A stretch of 64,000 nt of DNA from an uncultured Candidatus Cloacimonadota bacterium (GTDB lineage Bacteria; Cloacimonadota; Cloacimonadia; Cloacimonadales; TCS61): NCBI GenBank assembly GCA_964433675.1, contig CAYSSJ010000004.1, positions 66,454 through 130,453 of the forward strand, read 5' to 3'. Below the pieces are notes generated by a model that made no database searches, was not told the origin of the DNA, and saw nothing but the letters and a program-made list of their open reading frames with translations. Numbering within the stretch: the stretch's first letter is position 1; each line of letters starts with the position of its first letter. Shown in pieces: positions 8,973 through 62,095 of the stretch. Made by a program: the position numbers and the translations under genes.

Positions 8973-10109
8973 ATGCCAACCATAATCTCCGATCCGGATA
9001 AAAAACTGATCCTCGAGATCAGCGACGATAAATTTTCCGCTTATCTTACCATTAAAAATAATGATGAGATCATAGATGAGAAGGAGATCATCACCCTTCT
9101 GGAACTTGCCGATATCAAAGCGGGGTTCAAAAACGCATCTCTCTTCTGCCAAGAAAACAACATAAAGAAAGAGGTAAACAAAAAATTTCTGATCGCACTG
9201 GGAGAAAAGCCGAAGATCGAAAGTTCGATAGATATCAAAATAGACCTCTCACGCTCTTATCAAACCGACTTTGGTTTGGACGAGCTAGAAAAATGCACTT
9301 GGGTGGCAAAAGATCAGAGCTTGGCAGAAGTAAGTTTGGAAGAAAACGTAAAATCAGCTCGTAATGTACATGGTGAGACGATTTCGGCAGATAAACTGCG
9401 GGAAAGCAGCATAAAGAAATATCTGGGCGAGAATCTGTATTTCGATAGTGAAGCAAGAGTAATTCGGGCGGCGAGCTACGGTTATCCGTACCAAGATGAA
9501 AAAGGTCGCCTCCATGTAAAAAACAAGCTGAATTGGGAAGCGGATATTATCGATAAAAGCGGAGTACTCTATGCCAGTCTGAATCTAAACGGTAGACTGA
9601 TAGGCTGCCAAGAGCTGGTCATCTTCGGGGATTGTAATGTGCTGGGAGTGGAGAACTCGACGGTGATCTGCAGTGGCAAATTCAAGTACAAGCAAATGGT
9701 CGATTCTGCCACTATTATAGCGGAAAACGGCATCATCGGAGATGAGAGCAGCTCATATATAAGCGGTCATATTTTGAGCGGCGGATCGATCTGGGTGAAT
9801 ACTATGGGAACGCCACAGGATAATGTAACCAAAGCGGAGTTGTGTATCTCACCATTCTACAAATATCTGCTCCTGCCAAAAGAGACTATAAACAAGCATG
9901 TTGCTCAGATGTTACCTGCCGCTTCTGAAGATTTGGAGAGCTGTTTTGAGAAACGTTTGAACGCGACACTCGCCAACGAGCAAACCGGCTTGGAGATCAA
10001 TGTAACTCATACTCTTTTTAAAAATACATCCCTCAGAATATTGGATCATCAATATCTGGCAGAAAAAGATCGGGCGAAGATAAATTTTAGGGAAAAGAGC
10101 AAAGAATAA
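8973..10109 (+). CDS. FapA/DUF342 family protein (flagellar-assembly-protein-A-like)
   Basis: N-terminal LILEISDDKFSAYLTIKNND resembles the FapA_N signature (...S.DKM.AYLTL...); size and beta-helix-like C-terminus are compatible. Confidence 0.5.
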   Translation: MPTIISDPDKKLILEISDDKFSAYLTIKNNDEIIDEKEIITLLELADIKAGFKNASLFCQENNIKKEVNKKFLIALGEKPKIESSIDIKIDLSRSYQTDFGLDELEKCTWVAKDQSLAEVSLEENVKSARNVHGETISADKLRESSIKKYLGENLYFDSEARVIRAASYGYPYQDEKGRLHVKNKLNWEADIIDKSGVLYASLNLNGRLIGCQELVIFGDCNVLGVENSTVICSGKFKYKQMVDSATIIAENGIIGDESSSYISGHILSGGSIWVNTMGTPQDNVTKAELCISPFYKYLLLPKETINKHVAQMLPAASEDLESCFEKRLNATLANEQTGLEINVTHTLFKNTSLRILDHQYLAEKDRAKINFREKSKE

Positions 10110-10764
10110 GAGAGTGTGAGAAGATGGGAATAGTAACGAAGGATTAAGGATCAAGGACGAAGGAAAGAACCAATATAGTGGCGCAGTTTTTAGTGATGAG
10201 TGATGAGTTTACATGCGAAGAAGATAGAGGATAGAGAGTAGAGGGAAGATTGGAGGTTAGGTGGATAGGAGGATAGGTTTGGAGTGAAAGCACCAAATTT
10301 CCCCGACAAAATAGGCAAGAAGATATCAGGTGAAAAGTAAAAGGGGAGAAGGGAAAGGGAAAAGTAACAAGTGACGAGTAACGAGTGACAAGGAAATCTC
10401 AATGACCGAATGACCGTAACGACTGAACGATTGAACGACTCAACTAATTAACCAATTAACCAATCAACCTCATCTTGCTATTCTTGCACCAACTCACACT
10501 TCGATACGCTCCGGCTTACGCCGAAGCTACTCAGTGTGACAAGCTTCTGATCTCTAAACCCTCAACCCTAAACTTCATCCTTGTCCTCCGTAGCCTCGGC
10601 GAAGGAGGATTGCTTCTCTCGCACCACTTTTCACATTATTAATTCTCTTGGAAAAAACATCATTGACAAATTGCAGCTTCAAGAAAAAGTGGGAAAAAAA
10701 GTAAAAGGAAGTGCATATTGTGATACGAGGACCGATTTGGGGCGTGCAAAAGTTTATAATACGA

Positions 10765-10797
10765 AAGCATTTATCGACTGGTAAATGCTTTTTTTCT
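10765..10797 (+). terminator. Rho-independent terminator-like hairpin (agcatttatcgactggtaaatgct plus 7 T)
   Basis: 7-bp perfect stem, 8-nt loop, followed by tttttttc; lies at the end of a 700 bp repeat-rich gene-free region just upstream of the 10830 gene. Confidence 0.55.
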
Positions 10798-10829
10798 TAT
10801 ATAGAGTCTAATTTGGCAAGGAGCGTGTT

Positions 10830-11549
10830 ATGACAGAAGAACTTGAAGTATTGGTGGAGATGCAGAAGAAAGATGATAGAATCGGCAAATACGAACACCA
10901 ACTGAAGATCCTACCCGAAGAGCTGAGCAGTCTGAAGCAGACCTTGGCAGAAGCAAATGCTGCCTTGGAGGAGACGGAGAGCAATCTTACAGAGAATTTG
11001 AAGTCTCAGAAGAAGCTGGAGCTGGAGATCGAAGATAACAAGCAGAGGATTGATAAATACAAAAATCAGTTGCTCTCTATAAAGACGAACAAGGAATATA
11101 AAGCGCTCAACGGTGAGATCAATCATCTGGAAACCAAAAATTCCGATATCGATGATAAATTAATTGCATTGATGGAAGAAGAGAGTAATTTAAGAGAAGA
11201 GAAGGAGAAGAGACTGGAAGCTAAGCGGTCGGCAGAGCAGGAGTTGAAAGCGAATGAGAAGCGACTGGAAGATAAGATAGCTGCTCTGCAAAAAGAGATA
11301 GAGCGGCTCAAGGAGCAGCGCAATGAATATGGCAGGAAGCTGCCGTTCAATCTATTGCGTAAATATGCTGGTCTGATCAAGAACAAGAACCGTAAAGCGG
11401 TAGTCCATTGCAGCGGTGAAGTTTGCGGAGGATGTGGATTTTCTATTCGTCCTCAGCTTATAATAGAGCTGAAGGAAGGCAAGAGTGTGTTATATTGTGA
11501 GAATTGTGGCAGGATCATGGTATATATTCCTGCTGAAGATAAAGAGTGA
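10830..11549 (+). CDS. Coiled-coil protein with C-terminal C4 zinc ribbon (COG1579/zf-RING_7-like)
   Basis: Long heptad-rich region then CSGEVCGGCGFSI...LYCENCGR, two CxxC pairs. Confidence 0.6.
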   Translation: MTEELEVLVEMQKKDDRIGKYEHQLKILPEELSSLKQTLAEANAALEETESNLTENLKSQKKLELEIEDNKQRIDKYKNQLLSIKTNKEYKALNGEINHLETKNSDIDDKLIALMEEESNLREEKEKRLEAKRSAEQELKANEKRLEDKIAALQKEIERLKEQRNEYGRKLPFNLLRKYAGLIKNKNRKAVVHCSGEVCGGCGFSIRPQLIIELKEGKSVLYCENCGRIMVYIPAEDKE

Positions 11550-11574
11550 GGATGTTGTTGAAGAGGATTAAATG

Positions 11575-11885
11575 TCTGCTACCTGTAGAAATGGCAGGTG
11601 GAGGAAAGTCCGAACACCAGAGGGCAGGATACTTCCTAACCGGAAGCTCCGGCAACGGAGAGATAGCTCCACAGAAACAAACCGCTCCGAGTTTACTCGG
11701 AGTAAGGGTGGAATGGTGGTGTAAGAGACCACCGGATCTCGGTGTGAATCGAGATGCCAGGAAAGCCTTATCCGGTGCAATGCCAAATAGGAAAGCATGG
11801 GTTTGCCCGACCCGTTATGCTTTCGGGTAGGCAGCTACAGTCGGGCGGTGTTGCCGCTCTCGAAAAGAGAATAGCAATATCCGAC
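11575..11885 (+). ncRNA. rnpB: RNase P RNA, bacterial type A (boundaries approximate, plus or minus 25 nt)
   Basis: Conserved blocks ggaggaaagtccg, acagaaa, agggtggaa-ggtg-gtaagagaccacc and aatgccaaatagg, all typical of bacterial RNase P RNA; ORFs 11546-11830(+) and 11568-11798(-) here are spurious. Confidence 0.8.
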
Positions 11886-11980
11886 GTAGATAAATAGACA
11901 TTGGGTTGCTTGTTAGGCAACTTACAGAATTCGGCTTATTATCTTCTTCAACAACACTTCAAGTTAATATAAAGGTTGTT

Positions 11981-16421: not shown

Positions 16422-16925
16422 TTATTTAACTTTTTGAAATCCCGGGCTATTCCCTCTTTTCCCGGTGTTCTTTTTGAAATCCCGGGACATTCTATCTTTG
16501 CCGGGAGTTCTTATGTACTGAGCTTCTTCAGCTTGTTTTTGCTGTTCGGGAGTGAGGGTTTCCCACAATTCTTTTCGCATATCGATGGAATTCTTTTCAA
16601 TCAGAGCTTGCTGATTGTTGATCTTAGTGACGATCTTTTTTGCTTCTGCATAGTTATGCTCTCTGAGTTCTTCTTTCATTTCCAATCTCCACACGTTAAT
16701 CTCCGAGCGAAGCGGAATATTTTGCTTTTGATATTTGGCACGGATGTTTCTGATCTGGTTATGTTGATCTACGCTAAGTTCTACATCCGCTAACATTCTG
16801 GCGAAAGGAGCCAGATGTGCATTCTCCTGACCGGCATAGCCATCACCATGCCCATGTGGTCCATGTGCTATTGCGAGAGAGGCAATAGCTAAGGTTGCGA
16901 TTATGAGTATGATACTCTTTTTCAT
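16422..16925 (-). CDS. Spy/CpxP-family periplasmic chaperone-like protein
   Basis: Signal peptide; LTPEQQKQ motif typical of CpxP/Spy/ZraP family. Confidence 0.6.
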   Translation of the reverse strand: MKKSIILIIATLAIASLAIAHGPHGHGDGYAGQENAHLAPFARMLADVELSVDQHNQIRNIRAKYQKQNIPLRSEINVWRLEMKEELREHNYAEAKKIVTKINNQQALIEKNSIDMRKELWETLTPEQQKQAEEAQYIRTPGKDRMSRDFKKNTGKRGNSPGFQKVK

Positions 16926-30998: not shown

Positions 30999-31075
30999 TG
31001 GTGGGTGATACTAGATTCGAACTAGTGACCTCTACGATGTCAACGTAGCACTCTAACCAACTGAGCTAATCACCC
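30999..31075 (-). tRNA. tRNA-Val (anticodon GAC), CCA encoded
   Basis: Minus strand GGGTGATTAGCTCAGTTGGTTAGAGTGCTACGTTGACATCGTAGAGGTCACTAGTTCGAATCTAGTATCACCCACCA has a 7-bp acceptor stem, anticodon loop TTGACAT and a T-arm GTTCGAATC. Confidence 0.9.
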
Positions 31076-52275: not shown

Positions 52276-54354
52276 TCAGTAATCGAACAGCTTTTCCTGA
52301 GAATGGTAACGAGTAAAAAAAGTCTGATGTAAAGCCTTGTTCTTGTCTTTCTCCAGCTCAAAATCTTCGTCTATGATAGAAAAAGCCCAGTATCTCGCCT
52401 CAGTAAGAATCTGTTGATCACGCACGATATTGGCTAACTTGAAGAGTGGGAAACCACTTTGCTCGGTACCGAAGAAATTTCCCGGTCCGCGCAAATCCAT
52501 ATCTTTCTCTGCTATCTTGAAGCCGTCATTGGTCTCTATCATGATATTCAGCCGTTCTTTTGCCTCTTTGCTCATGGGTGGATAGGCAATAAGATAACAA
52601 TAAGACTGTGCTGCACCTCTACCTACCCGTCCGCGCAGTTGATGTAGCTGACTCAATCCGAATCTTTCAGCATGCTCTATCACCATTATGGAAGCATTGG
52701 GTACATCTATGCCAACTTCGATAACTGTGGTGGCTATCAATACAGATATACGATTGTCGTTAAAATCCCGCATAATAGCATCTTTATCTTTCTGCTTCAT
52801 CTTTCCGTGTAATAGAGCGCAATGATGATCCTTATAGATTTCAGTGCTGAGTGTTTTAAACAGAGATTGGGCTGCCAGGAGATCACTTTTTTCAGATTCC
52901 TCTACCAACGGACAGACGATATATACCTGCCTACCTTTGGCAATATTTCCCCGCAGTTTTTTGTACAAATCCTCTCGTTTACCTGCACCGATCCATTTAG
53001 TTCTCACCGGTTTTCTGTTCGGTGGCAGCTCATCTATCACACTTACATCAAGATCACCATACACCGTAAGAGCAAGGGAACGGGGGATAGGAGTGGCAGA
53101 AAGGTGCAATATGTCCGGATGCTTACCCGATTGTGAAAGGAAAGCACGCTGCTTTACTCCAAAACGATGCTGCTCATCTATGGCAACGAAACCGACATTA
53201 TGATAGCGCATATCTTTTTGGATAAGTGCGTGTGTACCTATGATGATATTTATCTTCCCTTCCGCTATTGTTTCTTTAGCTGTTTTTTTTGCCTTGTTCT
53301 CACCGCCGGTGATCAATACGATGCTGAGCTCCGGTTGATTTTTTAAAAGGGAGGAGACATTTTTGAAGTGTTGCTCTGCCAGAATCTCTGTGGGAGCCAT
53401 CATCACAGCTTGAAATCCGTTTTCGATAGCGATCAACATAGCAAAGACGGTAACGATCGTCTTACCTGAGCCAACATCACCTTGAAGCAATCTATTCATC
53501 TGTCTCTTGGCGGTCATATCGGTTACTATCTCTCGGATCACTCTCTTCTGAGCACCCGTAAGAGCGAATGGTAGAGATTCTTTCAAAGCGGTAGAGTATG
53601 TCTTTTTCAGACTAAATTTGTTGCCCTCTTTTTCGATATGATGTCTTTTCTTAGTACGAGCCAACATCAATTGATGATAAAACAGCTCTTCGAAGATAAA
53701 TCTCTTTTTTGCAGTTTGAATAGCCTGAGGATGGGCAGAAAAATGAATATCATGAACCGCATCCTGCCGGGAGGGAAATTTATACTTTTGCAGAAGATAA
53801 TCAGGTAGCGTTTCCTCCAGATATTTACCATACAAACGGTAGGCATTATACACCAAGTCCCGCATTAGATTCATGCCGATCTTTTCGGTGAGAGGATAAA
53901 CCGGCAAAAAGGTTTTATCCAACCAATAACTGCTTTTATTTGGATTAGTCAATATCTCAAAATCCGGGTGCACTAACTGCATTTTACCCATAAATTCTGT
54001 CACCACACCACTCAACCAAATCGTCTCACCTTCTTTGAACTGAGCCAAAAACCAAGCACTAAACCGAAACCAAACACAATCGATAAAAGCTTTCCCGTCG
54101 GTGATGATGAGATGTAACTGTTTTCTACCCTGTTTATCCATCCGTTTATGTACGGAATGGATCTCGCCTATCAGTGAACAGCGTTCTCCTACTCTGAGGT
54201 CTCGAATAGATTGGCAAGCATGGCGATTGATATAATCACGCGGGAAATGAAAGAGCAGATCCTCGATCGTTTGAATATCGAGTTTTTTGAGAAGGCGAGC
54301 TCGAAACTCACCCACTCCTTTCAAATACTGTACACTATTCTTTAACGGATCCAT
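52276..54354 (-). CDS. recG: ATP-dependent DNA helicase RecG
   Basis: Wedge domain plus SF2 helicase motifs (GDVGSGKT, DEQHRFG). Confidence 0.9.
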   Translation of the reverse strand: MDPLKNSVQYLKGVGEFRARLLKKLDIQTIEDLLFHFPRDYINRHACQSIRDLRVGERCSLIGEIHSVHKRMDKQGRKQLHLIITDGKAFIDCVWFRFSAWFLAQFKEGETIWLSGVVTEFMGKMQLVHPDFEILTNPNKSSYWLDKTFLPVYPLTEKIGMNLMRDLVYNAYRLYGKYLEETLPDYLLQKYKFPSRQDAVHDIHFSAHPQAIQTAKKRFIFEELFYHQLMLARTKKRHHIEKEGNKFSLKKTYSTALKESLPFALTGAQKRVIREIVTDMTAKRQMNRLLQGDVGSGKTIVTVFAMLIAIENGFQAVMMAPTEILAEQHFKNVSSLLKNQPELSIVLITGGENKAKKTAKETIAEGKINIIIGTHALIQKDMRYHNVGFVAIDEQHRFGVKQRAFLSQSGKHPDILHLSATPIPRSLALTVYGDLDVSVIDELPPNRKPVRTKWIGAGKREDLYKKLRGNIAKGRQVYIVCPLVEESEKSDLLAAQSLFKTLSTEIYKDHHCALLHGKMKQKDKDAIMRDFNDNRISVLIATTVIEVGIDVPNASIMVIEHAERFGLSQLHQLRGRVGRGAAQSYCYLIAYPPMSKEAKERLNIMIETNDGFKIAEKDMDLRGPGNFFGTEQSGFPLFKLANIVRDQQILTEARYWAFSIIDEDFELEKDKNKALHQTFFTRYHSQEKLFDY

Positions 54355-54578
54355 ATTGATATTTATTTCGTATCTGCTTGTTTCCAGTCAAGAAAAAGAT
54401 TTGACTGCAGTGGAACAGATAGGCTCCACATGGCAGGCAGGGCAGGCAAAGAAATCCCAAATTCCAAGCACCAAATACCCCCCAGTGAAATATTTCTGAC
54501 GAAATTTCACTGGGCAGGCAAATAAATCTCAAATCCCAAACTACAATGACCAAAACGAAAACCTGCATTTACTAAGTT

Positions 54579-54621
54579 CACACTTCGATACGCTCCGGCT
54601 TCGCCGAAGCTACTCAGTGTG
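54579..54621. repeat. Core imperfect hairpin of interspersed mosaic repeat (copy 2 of 4)
   Basis: cacact-tcgatacgctccg-gcttcg-c-cgaagc-tactc-agtgtg; near-identical copies at 10495-10538, 61515-61554, 61836-61879. Confidence 0.8.
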
Positions 54622-54819
54622 ACAAGCTTATGACCGTTGATCTCTAAACTATCACTCTAAACTGCATATTGCATTATTCATTATACATTGTTCATTTACT
54701 TACATTCTCACCTTCTCCAATCTGCTTACTGCCTACTGCTTACTGTATTCCAATCTTCCTATCTTCCTATCCTCCTAACCTCCTAACCTCCTATCTACTA
54801 CCTTCCACCGTCTATCACC

Positions 54820-57147
54820 TTACTTCAACAGAACCACCCGATGTGTCTGTGTCTCACTACCATTTCTCAGCTTCGCCAGATATATCCCCGAAGCTACCAC
54901 TCTGCCACGATTATCTCTGCCATCCCAGGTGATATGAGTTACAGAATCTTCCGATGGTGACACTTCCAATTTTCGCACTAACTGTCCTTTGATGTTGTAG
55001 AGTTCGATGACGGCATCTTCGTCTATCTGGGGCAGATTAATAGCGAAGGTGGTCTCAGTATTGAACGGATTGGGGAAGTTAGCGAAAGTTACCTCCGGTG
55101 GTAAGATAGCGGGCTCATCGGCGGAGATGGGAGTGATATTAAGTTCGTAGAGGGAGAGGTGGTCTCTATTAACACTGAAAGCATAAACTTCTGGTCCGGT
55201 TTCGAGAAAATGCATATTATTTGTTCCATGTAAGGTCTCATGTCCAAATATGAAACTATCAATTATTCCGTTTGGAGAATCTCCAATATCATAAAGCAAT
55301 TGTATCGGGCGGACAGCTGATGTAGTTATAAACAAAATTCCATCATAATAATCAACGGTATAAGGAGTAATACTTAAACCTGTCTGAATCGAAAACTGTA
55401 CTGTTGGTTCAGTAGGATTTTCTAATGAATAAAAATTATCTATTATTGTATTATAATCTCTATGAAAGAGATAATCATTTACTATCGTTGGAGATGCATG
55501 TGCATGATTAACAAAATTCATATGAGAATTTGCAATAGAAGGATCATTCTCGAACAAACCATCTATTATATAGAGGTTTTGAGTGTTTTGTGGTTCATTT
55601 CGTTCATACAAATAACCATAACCATTATGTATCAAAATCGTATATCCGACCGGATGTTCGAATTCGAATAGCAATTCGGGATTTCGAGGATCACTGATAT
55701 CATATTTTCTTAATATCGAATTTGGGTAATGCCTGTAAATATAAATCGTGTCATCTTCATATTCATCTATACGAATCTTACTATGAACAATCGGTTCTGT
55801 AGATATTTCGGCTAAAAGTTCTACTTCCGGCAAGTTTGATATATCATAAATCTCGACCAATGATTCTGCCATCACAGATAGTATTAGTAAATCATGCTTT
55901 ATGTTTATATGATAATATTCATTTTCATATAATTCGTTATAAATAATTTGAGGATTATGAGGATCCTGTATATCATAAAAATAGACGCCGGCACTTCCAA
56001 AGGTAGTATAATACCAATCAGAATTTATTACAAGATAATGATCATAAAACTTACTGGTACTGGCTAAGGTAGTTGGGTAGTCAAAATGTATTTCTCTAAA
56101 TTCGATTTGCATTTCATCCCTATTCAATTCAAAAACATGGATATAGTCGGTTAAGGTAGCATAGATAATATCTTCATGTACTGTGGGTTGTCTGGGAACT
56201 GGCACATATATGTTAATATGGTCAAGAACTTGTGGATTATAAATATCACTAATATCCAATAATTCTAATCCATTTTGCTTCATTAAGATCAATAAATGAT
56301 CGTCTATATAACTATATTTTCTATAATTGACAGAAAGCGGAAAATCAAATTCATAATGTGTTATATATTGCCAATCTACCGGATCGGTTATATCCCAAAA
56401 TGAGATAGCAAATTGGTTATTTACCATAACAACATCTTCTGAATATCTGGTAAAATAGGTAATGGAAGATGTTGTCGGGTTATGAATATCGGACATATCT
56501 ATCTCATTGAGGTATTGAATATTGTTTATATCGGAAAATTCATAAAAATATAATGTGTTGTTTGGCATACTAATATGTATCGCAATTTCATCGGTTAATT
56601 CGTGTAGTGTCAGGTAGTAAGGTGGTAGCGGCGACTGAGGAAGTGTGGCAACATATTCCAAATCCGGTAAGGTATATAGCTCACTTCCTTCCAGAACATT
56701 ATAGACTTGTAGATAATTTCCGATTTTATAACCGCCAACACCAGTTGATTCAGAGTAACTAAGTTGAATTGCATTTTCGATTATCGGAGTTGAAGGATTA
56801 GATACATTTACTTGATATATAGTACTTGGTTCGGTGACAAAATCAAATTCGGGGTAACTAGGTCCAAATGTGATGATATATAAATAATCCCCGTGTTTCA
56901 CAAATGAATTTGGCACCTTGAAAGGTAAGATTGATAAACATTCCAATGTCCCATTTTCCTGGATTTCGAATATCTGCATAGAACATCTGGTTATTGTGTA
57001 CAAATATGGCTCATCGATTATTATGTGATCATGACTTGAAAAATAAGACTGAGAATAACCGTAGTGATCGATAAGCTCTAACGAAGCTTCTGTAGCTAAC
57101 ACAGGAAGTACTATTATAGTTAGAATTAATATAATAATATTTTTCAT
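54820..57147 (-). CDS. LVIVD-repeat beta-propeller protein with T9SS C-terminal sorting domain (paralog A)
   Basis: Signal peptide; repeated LxIxDISDPxNP-type LVIVD blades; C-terminal FANFPNPFNTETTF...YNIKGQLVRKL...GIYLAKL T9SS CTD. Confidence 0.7.
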   Translation of the reverse strand: MKNIIILILTIIVLPVLATEASLELIDHYGYSQSYFSSHDHIIIDEPYLYTITRCSMQIFEIQENGTLECLSILPFKVPNSFVKHGDYLYIITFGPSYPEFDFVTEPSTIYQVNVSNPSTPIIENAIQLSYSESTGVGGYKIGNYLQVYNVLEGSELYTLPDLEYVATLPQSPLPPYYLTLHELTDEIAIHISMPNNTLYFYEFSDINNIQYLNEIDMSDIHNPTTSSITYFTRYSEDVVMVNNQFAISFWDITDPVDWQYITHYEFDFPLSVNYRKYSYIDDHLLILMKQNGLELLDISDIYNPQVLDHINIYVPVPRQPTVHEDIIYATLTDYIHVFELNRDEMQIEFREIHFDYPTTLASTSKFYDHYLVINSDWYYTTFGSAGVYFYDIQDPHNPQIIYNELYENEYYHINIKHDLLILSVMAESLVEIYDISNLPEVELLAEISTEPIVHSKIRIDEYEDDTIYIYRHYPNSILRKYDISDPRNPELLFEFEHPVGYTILIHNGYGYLYERNEPQNTQNLYIIDGLFENDPSIANSHMNFVNHAHASPTIVNDYLFHRDYNTIIDNFYSLENPTEPTVQFSIQTGLSITPYTVDYYDGILFITTSAVRPIQLLYDIGDSPNGIIDSFIFGHETLHGTNNMHFLETGPEVYAFSVNRDHLSLYELNITPISADEPAILPPEVTFANFPNPFNTETTFAINLPQIDEDAVIELYNIKGQLVRKLEVSPSEDSVTHITWDGRDNRGRVVASGIYLAKLRNGSETQTHRVVLLK

Positions 57148-57219: not shown

Positions 57220-57600
57220 TTATGGTATTTGAGGAGTAGTACCACCACCATGTTGATTAGACGGCCAATAAATATCAAGCTCAATAGTAGATGGATGAAC
57301 TTCTCCAACTGTATAACTATCGTATTTATCTAAAATTAAAATACTCTGATGTGTACTTTTCATTTTAATCTCTGTACCAGGTTCAAGGCTTTCAGCAATT
57401 CTAGTCTCAGTCTCTCTCTCTCCGGGTACTAAAATAAACAATAACTCATTTTCTTCGTCTGGTCTTATTTCCCAAAAAAAGTATTCACCTGAATGAGCAT
57501 CTTCATGTACTTCACCAGTATACTTTATTGTTACTTCTGCCCACAACATTCCGATAGCAAAAAATATCATCAGGACCGTGATTATTATTATCTTTTTCAT
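57220..57600 (-). CDS. Small secreted protein (cassette A partner)
   Basis: Signal peptide MKKIIIITVLMIFFAIGMLWA; C-terminal IYWP..GGG resembles the 60575 paralog. Confidence 0.5.
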   Translation of the reverse strand: MKKIIIITVLMIFFAIGMLWAEVTIKYTGEVHEDAHSGEYFFWEIRPDEENELLFILVPGERETETRIAESLEPGTEIKMKSTHQSILILDKYDSYTVGEVHPSTIELDIYWPSNQHGGGTTPQIP

Positions 57601-57847: not shown

Positions 57848-58190
57848 TAAAATATTGTTTTACATAGAGATAGCGAATCTGACGCTAATTCTCTTTGCAA
57901 AACAAAAAGTTTGTGAGCAAATCTCAGGATCATCATGCCTCCTTACGATCCTAAAAACTACCCTTTACCTCACGCTCCTTAGCTACGATATTGACATTTT
58001 TCCTTGCGAAATTATAGCATTAATTTTCTAAAACACTTATCTACCTGTCAAGAAAAATCTTATCTTCCAACAAATTCCTATAAATTCCTGCCAATACCTT
58101 GTTTCTAAACCTCTCCCTTGTCCTCCGTAGCCTGTAAGGTGAAGGGGGCTTGCTTCTTCTTCCACCCTCCACTCTCCTCCTTCTATCATC

Positions 58191-60506
58191 TTACTTCAAC
58201 AGCACCACCCGATGTGTCTGTGTCTCACTACCATTTCTCAGTTTCGCCAGATATATCCCCGAAGCTACCACTCTGCCTTTACTATCTCTGCCATCCCAGG
58301 TGATATGTGTTACAGAATCTTCCGATGGTGGAACTTCCAGCTTACGGATCAATTGTCCTTTGATATTATAGAGTTCGATTACGGCATCGTCTTCTATATC
58401 CGGAAGATTGATAGCGAAGGTGGTTTCGGTGTTGAACGGATTGGGGAAGTTGGCGAAAGCCATATCCGGCGGGATTATAGCGGGATCATCGGCGGAGATG
58501 GGAGTGATATTGAGTTCGTAGAGGGAGAGGTGGGAGCGTCCGATATTATACATATAAGTAGTAGAATTAGTTTCGTAGATAAATGAGTAGTTTTGAGAAT
58601 ATTCCTCAAAATAAGTTTCATGTGTAATTGTACCGGTAACTTCACCCGATATGTCATATAAGAAAGTGACACGTGATCCAAGCATTAATGGAGAGGCAAA
58701 TATGATATCTTCATAATACAAATACATATTCAGTGGGTATTCGAGTTGAAAGACGAATTCTGGATTATGGGGGTCTGTTTGTATTTCATATAAGTGCGAT
58801 TCATGATTTGGAGAAAACAAGACTAAGTGGTCCAGGTAGTTGTTCGTGTACAAGTAAACAGTATCATCATAATTACTGAAGCCTGGGATAGCATTTGCCA
58901 GATAAGGCTGATTATCATGCAAACCACCTACTACATGCAGATCTTGGGTTGCTGCATGCTGATGATTGGTTAAGATATAACCATATCCATCGTTTACTAC
59001 AAATCTCGGAGCTGTAAATCCGTCCTCATAAAATAACAGTTCTACAGAATTAGACTCTATTTGGTATTTTCTAATAATTGAATCCGGATAGCGCGTATGC
59101 ACATAAAATACATCATCCACATAAGGATCTGTAACTACTTGTGAAAATATAAAATCCCAAACATCATAAAAGACAATTTGATCGATTAATCCGGGCATGG
59201 TGGGAACTGTGATATCATATATATTTAGATAGAATTCATCCTGATTAAGATCTCCATCTACTTTAGCAATCAGATAGTTATCAAGTATTTTGGGTTGAGA
59301 TAAATCTTTGAATGCTTCTATTTCTATAATAGATGGATTGAGTGGATCAGAGAGATCATACATATAAATACCATAGTAGTCCGAATCAAGAAATATTAAA
59401 TCCATATATTGTCCGGCAAGGCTAGAATTAACAGGGTAAGAAAGATATTCGCCAATGTATTCGAATTCCATAGTACTTTCATTCAGATAAACCTGTAAGA
59501 TACCTTCATCATCATCGGAAGGTATATAAATAGTATTATTAGACTCATTAAATACCCCGCAATTTATGTTCTTATAAAAAAGATCATGATGATCCAGTAT
59601 GACAGGGTCATAGATGTCGGTTATATCGACCAGGTATAGTCCATCTTGGGCATATACTATCATCAGCCAGTTTTCTATTATATCATGCACAGCCCGCCAT
59701 ATCATATCAGAATCCAAAGAAAAACTGCTGAGATAAGTCCAATCTTCGGTATCTGATATATCCCAAAAGGAAAGACAAGTCTGTCCTGCCATCATCAGCA
59801 ATGTATCTCTGATTACGGTGAATTTCCCGGGTAAATGATCACCATGAATGTCCCAGACATCGATGGTGCTTATGAGTTCTAGATTTTCGATATCGGAGTA
59901 ATCATATATATCGATATTGCCATAACCTGGGCTTTGATCAACTGCTATATTATCGGAGATTTCATGTAACTTTACATGATAACCCGGTAGAACAGAAGGT
60001 GGCAGGGAAGTAATATATTCCAGATCGGGTATGGTGTATATATCGCTGGCAAACTGATAACTGCCGGCTTGTAGATATTCGCCTACTATGTTGATAGAAC
60101 GATTGTTCTCAATACTATCATATTCAATGCTATTGATAATTTGCGGATTATGCTTATCAGAGACATCTATCTGATGTAAAGTTAAAGGCGTGGTATATGG
60201 TTTCAAATATGAGCCAACAAAATTGCTGGTAAGCAGATAGATATAATCATCCGCTTTGGTAAAGTATGCAGCACTAACGATAGGTAAGTGCGATAATTTG
60301 GTCAGTTCATCATCGTTACCAATTTCAAAGATAGCAAGCCCTGATACTGTAACAGCATATAAATATGGGTGTTCTACTATCAACCTGTCGTGTGTAGCAC
60401 CAAAGGCTTCTCCAAAATTAATGGATTTGATATGTTCGATATCTATTTCTACGGATACTAAATTGTATGTAAATATTATTAGTATAATTATCCCTATATT
60501 TTTCAT
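58191..60506 (-). CDS. LVIVD-repeat beta-propeller protein with T9SS C-terminal sorting domain (paralog B)
   Basis: Same architecture as paralog A; last 330 nt nearly identical to paralog A at DNA level. Confidence 0.7.
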   Translation of the reverse strand: MKNIGIIILIIFTYNLVSVEIDIEHIKSINFGEAFGATHDRLIVEHPYLYAVTVSGLAIFEIGNDDELTKLSHLPIVSAAYFTKADDYIYLLTSNFVGSYLKPYTTPLTLHQIDVSDKHNPQIINSIEYDSIENNRSINIVGEYLQAGSYQFASDIYTIPDLEYITSLPPSVLPGYHVKLHEISDNIAVDQSPGYGNIDIYDYSDIENLELISTIDVWDIHGDHLPGKFTVIRDTLLMMAGQTCLSFWDISDTEDWTYLSSFSLDSDMIWRAVHDIIENWLMIVYAQDGLYLVDITDIYDPVILDHHDLFYKNINCGVFNESNNTIYIPSDDDEGILQVYLNESTMEFEYIGEYLSYPVNSSLAGQYMDLIFLDSDYYGIYMYDLSDPLNPSIIEIEAFKDLSQPKILDNYLIAKVDGDLNQDEFYLNIYDITVPTMPGLIDQIVFYDVWDFIFSQVVTDPYVDDVFYVHTRYPDSIIRKYQIESNSVELLFYEDGFTAPRFVVNDGYGYILTNHQHAATQDLHVVGGLHDNQPYLANAIPGFSNYDDTVYLYTNNYLDHLVLFSPNHESHLYEIQTDPHNPEFVFQLEYPLNMYLYYEDIIFASPLMLGSRVTFLYDISGEVTGTITHETYFEEYSQNYSFIYETNSTTYMYNIGRSHLSLYELNITPISADDPAIIPPDMAFANFPNPFNTETTFAINLPDIEDDAVIELYNIKGQLIRKLEVPPSEDSVTHITWDGRDSKGRVVASGIYLAKLRNGSETQTHRVVLLK

Positions 60507-60574: not shown

Positions 60575-60991
60575 TCATTCAGGTTCCGGTATAGTTGGAT
60601 CATACTCCTCTGGAGGTTCTCCACCACCACCACCGGGCCAATAGATAACGATCGGATTGCCACTGAAGCCAGGCGGAACATCTTTTGTCCTTAGTATTGT
60701 TTCACCACTTGATGTTGTTGATTCGACTCCTGCACAGGCAGGATATTGAGTAGAGCTGGTTATGTATGTAGTATATGTTCTTGTATCTGGTGCTTGTACA
60801 TCTCCATAAGAACTAGATCGATAGAATGAAAATGGTGGACAAGGTTCTCTATCATATCCAATTTCAACATCATAAGCATTTTGAGTAAAGTGAACTTCTA
60901 CTATTAATTCGAGTGGATATTCAGTATCTGCTTGTAGCATGCCAACAGTACCCATTAGTAAGAGTACTGCGAGAATTATTATCTTTTTCAT
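60575..60991 (-). CDS. Small secreted protein (cassette B partner)
   Basis: Signal peptide MKKIIILAVLLLMGTVGMLQA; Ser/Thr/Tyr-rich; C-terminal IVIYWPGGGGG. Confidence 0.5.
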   Translation of the reverse strand: MKKIIILAVLLLMGTVGMLQADTEYPLELIVEVHFTQNAYDVEIGYDREPCPPFSFYRSSSYGDVQAPDTRTYTTYITSSTQYPACAGVESTTSSGETILRTKDVPPGFSGNPIVIYWPGGGGGEPPEEYDPTIPEPE

Positions 60992-61244
60992 TTTTTATTC
61001 CTCCTAATTTTTTTTTCACCCGTTATTTAATTTTACTCTCACCACAGGCAGGGTGAGAGGATTCCCCCTCGACTTGCGCCGGTAGTGGCAAATCAAATCC
61101 CTCTCTATGCGGGGAATCTTTTCATAGAGAGGTGCGCTCAGGTGAACTTGTTCTTCCCGATATAGAAGATATAATATTTTTTGGAGCGAGTATAGTTTTC
61201 TTGCTTTACTTTGCATCTTTTTATCTGTTTGGCATAGAAGTTGC

Positions 61245-61253
61245 GGGGGGGGG
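61245..61253. repeat. Homopolymeric G9/C9 tract in conserved upstream region of cassette B
   Basis: 9 consecutive G followed by taaaat, about 255 nt upstream of the 60991 start codon. Confidence 0.9.
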
Positions 61254-61974
61254 TAAAATGCCTATAATATAATGAGATAGAGTGAGAGCGCAGACTGCTT
61301 TGGAATATCCATAAATTCGACTAAAGCAACTCAGGAGCATCGTCACCTCCTTGTTTTTCCGCTCCTAAAAACTCTCTTTCTCATTCCCTTAGTTTCGATA
61401 TTGAACTTTTTTCTCATTTATATTATCGAAGCAAGTCTCTATATCTAACTAATATGTGTCAAGAAAAAAACTTTTTTCACCGGAATTTCTTCCTGCTACT
61501 CTTTCGCTATTTCCACTTCGATACGCTCCGGCTTCGCCGAAGCTACTCAGTGTGACAAGCTTATGACCGTTGATCTCTAAACTATCACTCTAAACTGCAT
61601 ATTACTTCTCTTCCAATAAAATTCCATGAGCGATGCGAATAAATTTCTCAATTCATTTCTTGATATTTTTTCGAAAACAAGATGACATCTTGTCCTACGT
61701 TCCATGCTCTTTGCAATAAATTCCGTGAGCGCAGCGAACAAATTCCTACATATTCCTATCAATACCTTCTTCCTAAACTTTCAACCAATTAACCAGTCAA
61801 CTAATCAACTTCATCCTGCTATTCTTGCACCAACTCACACTTCGATACGCTCCGGCTTGCGCCGAAACTACTCAGTGTGACAAGCTTATGACAGTTGATC
61901 TCTAAACTATCACTCTAAACTGCTTCTTACATTGTTCATTATACATTATTCATTCTCAACAGAATCTCTTCCTG

Positions 61975-62070
61975 CTTTTTCTTCCACCTTCCACCTTCTA
62001 TCATCTTATTTCAACATCACCACCCTATGTGTCAGCGTCTCCTTGCCATTTTTCAGTTTCGCCAGATATA
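61975..62070 (-). pseudogene. Degenerate remnant of an LVIVD/T9SS gene 3' end (CTD-encoding fragment only)
   Basis: About 90 percent identity to 58150-58260 over about 95 nt, then abrupt loss of similarity 25 nt before the comM stop codon. Confidence 0.6.
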
Positions 62071-62095
62071 CTCTCTAACCTAACGTCACACGCCT

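Follow-up and report, generated by a model that had tools for sequence, protein, structure and literature searches.

Hairpin repeats of a multi-phylum family in a Cloacimonadota genome and their association with small GIY-YIG nuclease genes

Four copies of a short hairpin repeat are present in a 64,000-nt stretch of DNA from an uncultured Candidatus Cloacimonadota bacterium (contig CAYSSJ010000004.1), the whole of which is referred to here as the window. Its JGI counterpart is contig Ga0334899_1000046. The copies are housed in unusually long intergenic regions (10110-10829, 54355-54819 and 60992-62095), beside a FapA-like gene, a CT398-like gene, recG, two paralogous genes for type IX secretion system (T9SS) cargo proteins (FlgD_ig and Por_Secre_tail) and a ComM/ChlI-like gene. 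The copy at 10492-10542 lies between the plus-strand FapA-like (8973-10109) and CT398-like (10830-11549) genes and is therefore antisense to its neighbours. The copy at 54576-54625 is located 194 nt past the stop codon of a T9SS-cargo gene (54820-57147, minus strand) and upstream of recG (52276-54354, minus strand). Three of the four copies are codirectional with the adjoining genes, the 10.5-kb copy being the antisense one. A scan of 54300-54900 gave no promoter-like or terminator-like site around the 54.6-kb copy, and no T-run follows any of the window copies. The window also contains a class A RNase P RNA (11560-11953, plus strand, 256.7 bits) and one tRNA gene (31002-31075, minus strand), both of them ordinary. 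ORFs of 126-138 aa without a Pfam or PADLOC match precede each T9SS-cargo paralog (57220-57600 and 60575-60991, minus strand). Two 40-nt tandem units with 83 % identity (CTTTTTGAAATCCCGGG...) occur at 16430-16512, over ORFs 16422-16925 (minus) and 16434-16793 (plus).

The sequence-only reading of this DNA had reported four repeat copies at these places, and all four were recovered by reading of the sequences, a repeat search and a covariance model. With filters off, the model gave exactly four matches in the whole 64 kb (41.9-56.9 bits), all on the minus strand; the fifth-ranked match scored only 10.5 bits (E = 1.7). The copies at 10492-10542 (54.9 bits, also read in the sequence), 54576-54625 (55.8 bits) and 61833-61883 (56.9 bits) are core hairpins of the subfamily designated M1, with GUAA, GAA and GCAA loops, respectively. 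The sole stem change in the last of these is C to U on the minus strand, by which a G-C pair becomes G.U and pairing is kept. The copy at 61510-61558 (41.9 bits) is decayed and its outer pair is broken. Its outer-stem 3' strand has been lost and replaced by GAAGUG-GAAA, and its hairpin and 5' flank are identical to those of the 54.6-kb copy, with which it shares repeat D3 (90 nt, 100 % identity, 54581-54670 versus 61514-61603). Repeat D4 (111 nt, 92 % identity) relates 10440-10550 to 61781-61891. A 46-nt core pattern matches exactly at 54584-54629 and 61517-61562 (expectation from shuffles 0.00), whereas the copies at 10492-10542 and 61833-61883 have a 1-nt loop insertion relative to this pattern and were recovered by the repeat search. 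The hairpin core described earlier is real; for its inner stem, given there as GCTTCG-c-CGAAGC, the minus strand offers a better reading, GCUUCGGC-(GAA/GUAA/GCAA)-GCCGGAGC.

In an alignment of the four sites, homology between sites begins and ends at or near the edges of the core, so that the flanks are mosaic. The module 5' of the core, GTTTAGAG-TGATA-GTTTAGAG-ATCAACGGTCATAAGCTT in the sense reading, is found at 54626-54665 (minus strand; four-site alignment and D3), 61559-61600 and 61884-61925; a shortened version of it occupies 10543-10575. The module 3' of the core, GTTGGTGCAAGAATAGCAAGATGAGGTTGATTGGTTAATTGG... in the sense reading, is common to 10440-10491 (minus strand; alignment and D4, 92 %) and 61781-61832 and is absent at the 54.6-kb and 61.5-kb sites. 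The 5' module is thus common to the 54.6-kb and 61.5-kb sites and the 3' module to the 10.5-kb and 61.8-kb sites. The 54.6-kb and 61.8-kb sites have in common, further upstream, a duplicated 3' end of the T9SS-cargo gene, and for this reason not all copies are independent insertions. The segment 61928-62082 (minus strand) consists of 7-nt tandem modules and, after them, what is left of a T9SS C-terminal sorting domain (D2, 81-89 %; alignment; Pfam Por_Secre_tail in the intact paralogs). The remnant (61980-62082) corresponds to the last ~25 codons of the domain and is homologous to 54794-54896 and 58165-58267. It lies just beyond the stop codon of the ComM/ChlI-like gene; the intact paralogs are at 54820-57147 and 58191-60506. 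An inverted match between 10853-10881 and the T9SS gene ends (I4, I5) was set aside as probably due to chance in purine-rich sequence, since it falls inside a real gene.

Nearly all of the 7-8-nt tandem repeats that Tandem Repeats Finder reported in the window are inside the copy-bearing intergenic regions. The modules AAGGATC, GATAGGAG, AAGTAAC, AATGACCG, AACGACTG and AACCAATT occupy 10136-10470 (also match I1), and part of this run is an inverted copy of the CT-rich run at 54748-54796. The modules TATTCAT, CTGCTTA and TTCCTATC fill 54667-54796, from the core to the stop codon of the T9SS gene. The three flanking modules proposed from the sequence alone are all present: the CT-rich run is indeed inverted (10247-10277 versus 54766-54796, 90 % over 31 nt), the third module, ccttgtcctccgtagcct, occurs at 10568-10596 and 58105-58133 with 90 % identity (D16), and ttcattatacatt... 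makes up the 7-nt tandem arrays located at 54667-54696 and 61928-61954. Across 10136-10470, 54667-54796 and 61738-61998 many differing 7-8-nt arrays are found, e.g., GTTTAGGG (a plant-telomere-like TTTAGGG unit), TAATGNA, GTTGATTG/GTTAATTG, CAGTAAG and GATAGGAG, and sister contigs contain these units again, but shuffled. A second hairpin module that recurs, AATCCTCCTTCGCC..GGCTACGGAGGACAAGG, with CCTCC/GGAGG arms resembling an anti-SD/SD pair and a loop of variable length, is present at 10579-10612 (minus-strand reading) and 58115-58132; it often adjoins the core and has many copies in loci L005-L036. A third, CCAGTGAAAT...ATTTCACTGG, preceded by GCCTGCC, is located at 54480-54519 and also downstream of cores in several sister contigs (c23, c33, c36 and c40).

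Only one strand of the element, a hairpin of 30-90 nt, folds well. The element is composed of a 7-bp outer stem (GUCAYNC/GNRUGAC), an asymmetric internal loop (5' strand UGAGU, 3' strand GUAUCGAA) and an inner hairpin that varies freely from absent to 60 nt, being absent in a minimal form of 28-30 nt. The hairpin claimed in the sequence-only reading is upheld by compensatory changes, which are abundant in both stems. The outer-stem pair left unconstrained by the search pattern is paired in 123 of 124 distinct instances and shows all four Watson-Crick types (C-G 93, G-C 11, A-U 9, U-A 6, with 4 wobbles), and at the Y-R pair of the same stem C.A is never formed. In a 53-sequence alignment, 85 % of the positions of the two-helix structure are paired versus 71 % in shuffles, and none of 500 shuffles reached 85 %. 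Controls in which the structure was slid along the alignment gave 37-49 %, and double changes were found in 7/7 inner pairs. The invariance of the internal loop in the sampled copies is partly imposed by the search pattern and the model; matches that fail the strict pattern still keep the internal-loop nucleotides.

The sense strand gives the better fold in 133/144 distinct instances. The same holds for the inner hairpin alone (sense better in 103 versus 28, p = 1e-7), and the sense reading contains 80 G.U pairs versus 24 A.C pairs. GNRA tetraloops number 15 on the sense strand versus 2 on the antisense strand, and GNA loops make up 35 of 67 triloops.

Confinement of the core to the window would have counted as a refutation in the sequence-only reading, but searches of sister metagenomes and, with a general pattern, of GTDB genomes located it far outside the window. 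A pattern specific for M1 matched ~60 times at 36 loci of the sister metagenomes Ga0334895-901 and gave no match in GTDB genomes. The M1 loops in the sister metagenomes, read on the minus strand, are GUAA (43), GCAA (9), GAA (3), GUAU (2), GUGA (1) and ACAA (1). The loci in these metagenomes contain further hairpins with the same unpaired nucleotides and other stems, and four subfamilies have been distinguished. M1 is the type of the window copies, and M2 has the inner stem GAUUCCGA/UCGGAAUU and is usually located 30-36 nt from M1 and facing it, whereas the third subfamily has a 47-nt inner hairpin and the fourth an inner hairpin of 58-60 nt, the terminal loop of which is found in both orientations. 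In this fourth subfamily (L015, L026, L029, L036 and others) the terminal loop flips between the inverted stem arms, TTTTTCTTAGTTGGTATAACCGG versus CCAGCTATACCGACTAAGAAAAAA, and the remaining motif keeps its direction. In many M2 copies an additional hairpin of ~30 nt is inserted exactly at the CTG/AGT junction in the conserved 5' loop (L002 8905-8985; also L003, L004, L005, L024, L027 and others). Another small hairpin may have become nested here by insertion, which would point to a preferred target.

The window copies all belong to a single subfamily. The general scaffold reads GUCAYNC-UGAGU-[variable hairpin]-GUAUCGAA-GNRUGAC and was searched for as GTCA[CT]N-CTGAGT-[hairpin]-GTATCGAAG-N[AG]TGA. 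With one genome per species, the general pattern was found at no fewer than 95 loci in GTDB. Among the matches listed, it is carried by Bacteroidota (Chitinophagaceae, Flavobacteriales, Schleiferiaceae, Owenweeksia and Bacteroidales), Cloacimonadota, Chloroflexota, Desulfobacterales, Margulisiibacteriota and Peribacteria. The scaffold also occurs in Ignavibacteria in its minimal form (28-30 nt, GTCACCC-TGAGC-NN-GTCGAA-GGGTGAC). The covariance model gave 222 matches in 650 kb of GTDB loci and 106 in the loci of the window's own lineage. No Rfam family was found at the core in the window and six other loci, either at the gathering thresholds or at E up to 10. Viral contigs lack the expanded motif, and the minimal motif was found in only 12 stretches of them, none with a GIY gene.

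The copies are mostly intergenic, are often arranged in dense arrays and are near-identical within one genome. Among neighbouring pairs less than 150 nt apart, 85/109 are in opposite orientation in the GTDB and own-lineage loci, as in BIMEs, and inverted doublets (M1> <M2) are present; no parent IS or DDE transposase was found among 136 flanking ORFs. Orientation relative to the adjoining genes follows no single rule, either between lineages or within the window. In GTDB genomes, cores lie more often in convergent than in divergent intergenic regions (24 vs 5). Short-read assemblies terminate at the repeat, in line with a high copy number. In exact-protein look-ups of recG and the CT398-like gene, all long contigs showed the same arrangement and none offered an empty site from which ends or target-site duplications could be defined. 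The closest recG relatives, too distant to serve as a close species for comparison, are at most 63 % identical, and those that carry names are Candidatus Cloacimonadota.

Blind clustering of the ORFs within 1.5 kb of cores identified a ~95-aa GIY-YIG protein (PF01541, E = 8e-20) as the top recurrent family. Its closest solved structures are 1ZG2 and 1YWL, both UPF0213. GIY-YIG was also the top Pfam family (8 members) among the 136 ORFs within 400 nt of a core, and no transposase (Y1, DDE) or integrase family was among the top 25 Pfam families of these ORFs. In other genomes, the cores tightly bracket these small Slx1-like/UPF0213 nuclease genes. Over all fetched loci, 26 of 28 GIY-YIG ORFs have a core at a distance of 0-42 nt, usually on both sides and with the two cores mutually inverted. 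The converse sampling, started from the protein, gave flanking cores at 6/6 homolog loci, which include an Ignavibacteriales MAG, a Cloacimonetes MAG and the isolate Stygiobacter electus. The window's lineage has two near-identical GIY genes, each flanked by M1 and M2, and the lineage GIY protein was found in the same samples as the window contig. The gene is absent within the fetched 8 kb at ~90 % of the motif loci. No GIY-YIG gene of this family lies within the 64-kb window, and the four window copies, arranged singly or in tandem, are therefore solo members of subfamily M1 of this multi-phylum repeat family.

The protein consists of the catalytic domain only (95 aa), without a C-terminal DNA-binding module, and scored 16.5 bits against the group I intron endonuclease model, far under the cut-off of 56. 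The nuclease had no match in PADLOC and one weak endonuclease match in PHROGs. It corresponds to the 'Slx1, non-eukaryote' group of PMC1564403. Both cores flanking the gene are intact, and a gene interrupting a core was never seen. The core upstream of the gene is in the motif-sense direction at L090, L085, L061, L132, L136 and L144 and in the motif-antisense direction at L002, L045, L078 and L052; since the gene occurs in both settings, the ends of the unit are undefined. At L002, two 156-aa ORFs without matches (10423-10893 and 10946-11416) lie between GIY-YIG units. At L137/L138 (ENA contigs), a GIY-YIG gene with its flanking cores separates the two BPD_transp_1 permease ORFs in an ABC transporter operon, into which the unit may have been inserted. 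The literature searched, with most subscription journals outside the search, contained no link between GIY-YIG genes and repeats, no description of Cloacimonadota repeats, and no repeat association or mobile behaviour for bacterial Slx1/UPF0213 members. No repeat association is reported in the GIY-YIG phylogenomics paper, and searches by sequence string returned unrelated primer matches only.

In its behaviour the element resembles the REP/BIME/REPIN-RAYT repeats of Enterobacteria and Pseudomonas, as the sequence-only reading had suggested. Both are short, high-copy, intergenic imperfect palindromes with a strand-specific hairpin, form alternating-orientation clusters and inverted doublets with mosaic spacers, and have an associated nuclease gene that is itself bracketed by copies. 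Membership of REP/RAYT or of the IS-derived MITEs was not supported. Of the two features that define REP/RAYT, the GTAG head is not conserved and the Y1 transposase does not recur: the head position reads GAGTAG in M1 and GTGA, GTGC, GTGT, GTTT or GTAA across the family, and the recurrent neighbour among the 136 ORFs is GIY-YIG, not a Y1 or DDE enzyme. The partner here is a hydrolytic Slx1-like GIY-YIG protein, whereas RAYT is TnpA-REP, a Y1 HUH tyrosine transposase. The present element, unlike REP, has two helices and a conserved asymmetric 5 x 8 internal loop, and its loop sequence is common across phyla, whereas REP sequences are lineage-specific.

Some other known elements share single features with the repeat. 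In attC sites and the subterminal hairpins of IS200/IS605 (IS608), as here, one strand folds better and unpaired nucleotides give strand identity, and attC also has a terminal part of variable length (the variable terminal structure). In contrast to these elements, no integrase, TnpA or TnpB is nearby and R'/R'' boxes are absent; the outer stem is GTCAYNC/GNRTGAC and, unlike attC, copies stand back to back without cassette ORFs. Cyanobacterial mosaic intergenic repeats consist of heptamer STRR arrays and small dispersed repeats in shuffled order. They are comparable to the present regions in that both are long and combine 7-8-nt tandem arrays with small hairpin repeats, but the phylum, the sequences and the nuclease association differ.

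With about even confidence, the repeats are considered to be REP/BIME-like non-autonomous hairpins that would be spread and shuffled by nuclease-triggered gene conversion. The associated nuclease would recognise the folded sense-strand hairpin, as single-stranded DNA or as an extruded hairpin, via the conserved loop and the GUCA/UGAC ends, and would nick it. Repair of the nick from another copy would then spread the hairpin together with adjoining sequence, yielding both amplification and mosaic flanks with homology breaks at the edges of the core. Nicking and repair are inferred from the combination of a strand-specific hairpin, a structure-specific nuclease family and homology breaks at the core. 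As a GIY-YIG protein made up of that domain only, the associated protein belongs to the Slx1/UPF0213 (YhbQ-like) group, and eukaryotic Slx1 cuts branched and stem-loop DNA. The window itself lacks the nuclease gene; its copies would therefore be non-autonomous passengers that depend in trans on a GIY-YIG gene at another place in the genome. GIY-YIG enzymes are hydrolytic and none is known to transpose DNA, which counts against this reading. The G.U asymmetry, the GNRA loops and the possible K-turn writing of the internal loop also count against it, as they fit RNA at least equally well. Further points against it are the ~90 % of motif loci without the gene, the lack of the gene in the window, its occurrence in both settings relative to the cores, the uniform arrangement in closely related assemblies, and the part that search pattern and model have in the invariance of the loop. 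A wider formulation, to which we give somewhat less than even confidence, is that an undescribed selfish or domesticated system exists in at least six phyla, composed of a ~400-bp unit, in which strand-specific hairpins bracket a bare Slx1-like GIY-YIG nuclease gene, and of nuclease-less hairpins. It would act through a hydrolytic nuclease and gene conversion, without a transposase, as a functional analogue of REP/RAYT, and a universally conserved K-turn-like loop would be its recognition element. The nuclease-less hairpins of such a system may number tens to hundreds of copies per genome.

A less probable alternative, still of some weight, is that the motif is a structured RNA, either a K-turn/K-loop protein-binding module or an RNA-processing or stability signal, and that the conserved loop reflects RNA tertiary structure. 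Judged from the nucleotides, the loop could be written as a K-turn with CUGAGU as the non-bulged and GU-[AUC]-GAAG as the bulged strand, and the minimal form as a K-loop. In this writing C-U-G-A-G-U is like the CUGA of box D and G-U-[A-U-C]-G-A-A-G like the xx-GA-xG of box C; the loop would have tandem sheared G.A/A.G pairs and a 3-nt bulge, the outer stem would be the non-canonical helix and the inner hairpin the canonical one. The likeness is to K-turns and K-loops of the box C/D type and Kt-7, in which CUGA stands opposite xxGA(A)G with a 3-nt bulge, and it is a resemblance of sequence only. The conserved nucleotides do not fit the hammerhead, hairpin, twister, pistol, loop E/sarcin-ricin or 11-nt tetraloop receptor motifs when compared by eye; only the K-turn reading fits. 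A structured RNA would also account for the covariation of both stems, the strand-specific fold with its G.U pairs, the enrichment of GNRA loops on the sense strand and the codirectionality of three window copies with surrounding genes, and an inner hairpin of free length (absent to 60 nt) beside fixed loop nucleotides is typical of RNA motifs. However, K-turns rarely have U.G and G.U as their -1 and -2 pairs, as this one would, the nucleotides of the bulge do not vary here, and in the genome the motif behaves as a repeat and not as a single functional RNA. Alternating orientation in arrays would make half of the copies in any transcript antisense and, with the multi-copy spread, argues against an sRNA or riboswitch of the conventional kind. 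Copies have no consistent orientation relative to genes, whether lineages are compared or the window alone is considered, and near-identical copies in each genome fit recent amplification, not independent conserved genes. The lack of an Rfam match and of a flanking promoter-like or terminator-like site at the 54.6-kb copy weighs against RNA as well, and C-G-closed GNA triloops are classic stable DNA mini-hairpins.

The dependence may also run the other way, with the repeats as a host feature with a role of their own (mRNA 3'-end protection, nucleoid or supercoiling sites, or simple selfish palindromes) and the GIY-YIG gene as a free-standing, homing-endonuclease-like parasite that targets the repeats, settles between copies and does not spread them; this appears rather unlikely. 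The gene is found between cores in either setting, as if it had landed in pre-existing alternating arrays, it is not near most cores, and the excess of convergent over divergent intergenic regions in GTDB genomes would suit a host role. Yet the gene was never seen to interrupt a core, the flanking cores being intact, and the protein, a nuclease domain of 95 aa and nothing more, lacks the C-terminal DNA-binding modules of GIY-YIG homing endonucleases. The type of motif, moreover, tracks the lineage of the GIY protein (minimal in Ignavibacteria, expanded in Cloacimonadota), which suggests long co-residence. The ordinary classes (REP/RAYT, IS-derived MITEs, integron attC, intrinsic terminators or segmental duplication of a gene 3' end) are mostly excluded by tests, and an origin in any of them is very improbable. 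M1 does combine GTAG with a palindrome, as REPs do, but GTAG is not family-wide (GTGA, GTGC and GTTT are common), Y1, DDE and integrase families are not recurrent near cores, the GTTRRRY/RYYYAAC box is absent, and the lack of a T-run after the hairpin and an empty terminator scan speak against terminators. Duplication is visible in the T9SS gene end common to the 54.6-kb and 61.8-kb sites, but it leaves unexplained the 10.5-kb copy and the ~60 copies on other contigs with unrelated flanks.

Of the persistent repeat populations known in bacteria, REP/RAYT alone is well described as being linked to a nuclease of its own. If nuclease-triggered spread of the hairpins is true, a second, unrelated enzyme class would play this part across several phyla, and the nuclease-linked repeat lifestyle would have evolved more than once. 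It would also explain the assembly breaks at intergenic regions in these lineages and the source of many spurious short ORFs. The compact conserved motif and the 95-aa protein form a jointly testable pair, for which a cultured carrier, Stygiobacter electus, exists. The association with these repeats would also provide the first functional handle on the widespread UPF0213/YhbQ-like GIY-YIG proteins, the structures of which have been solved.
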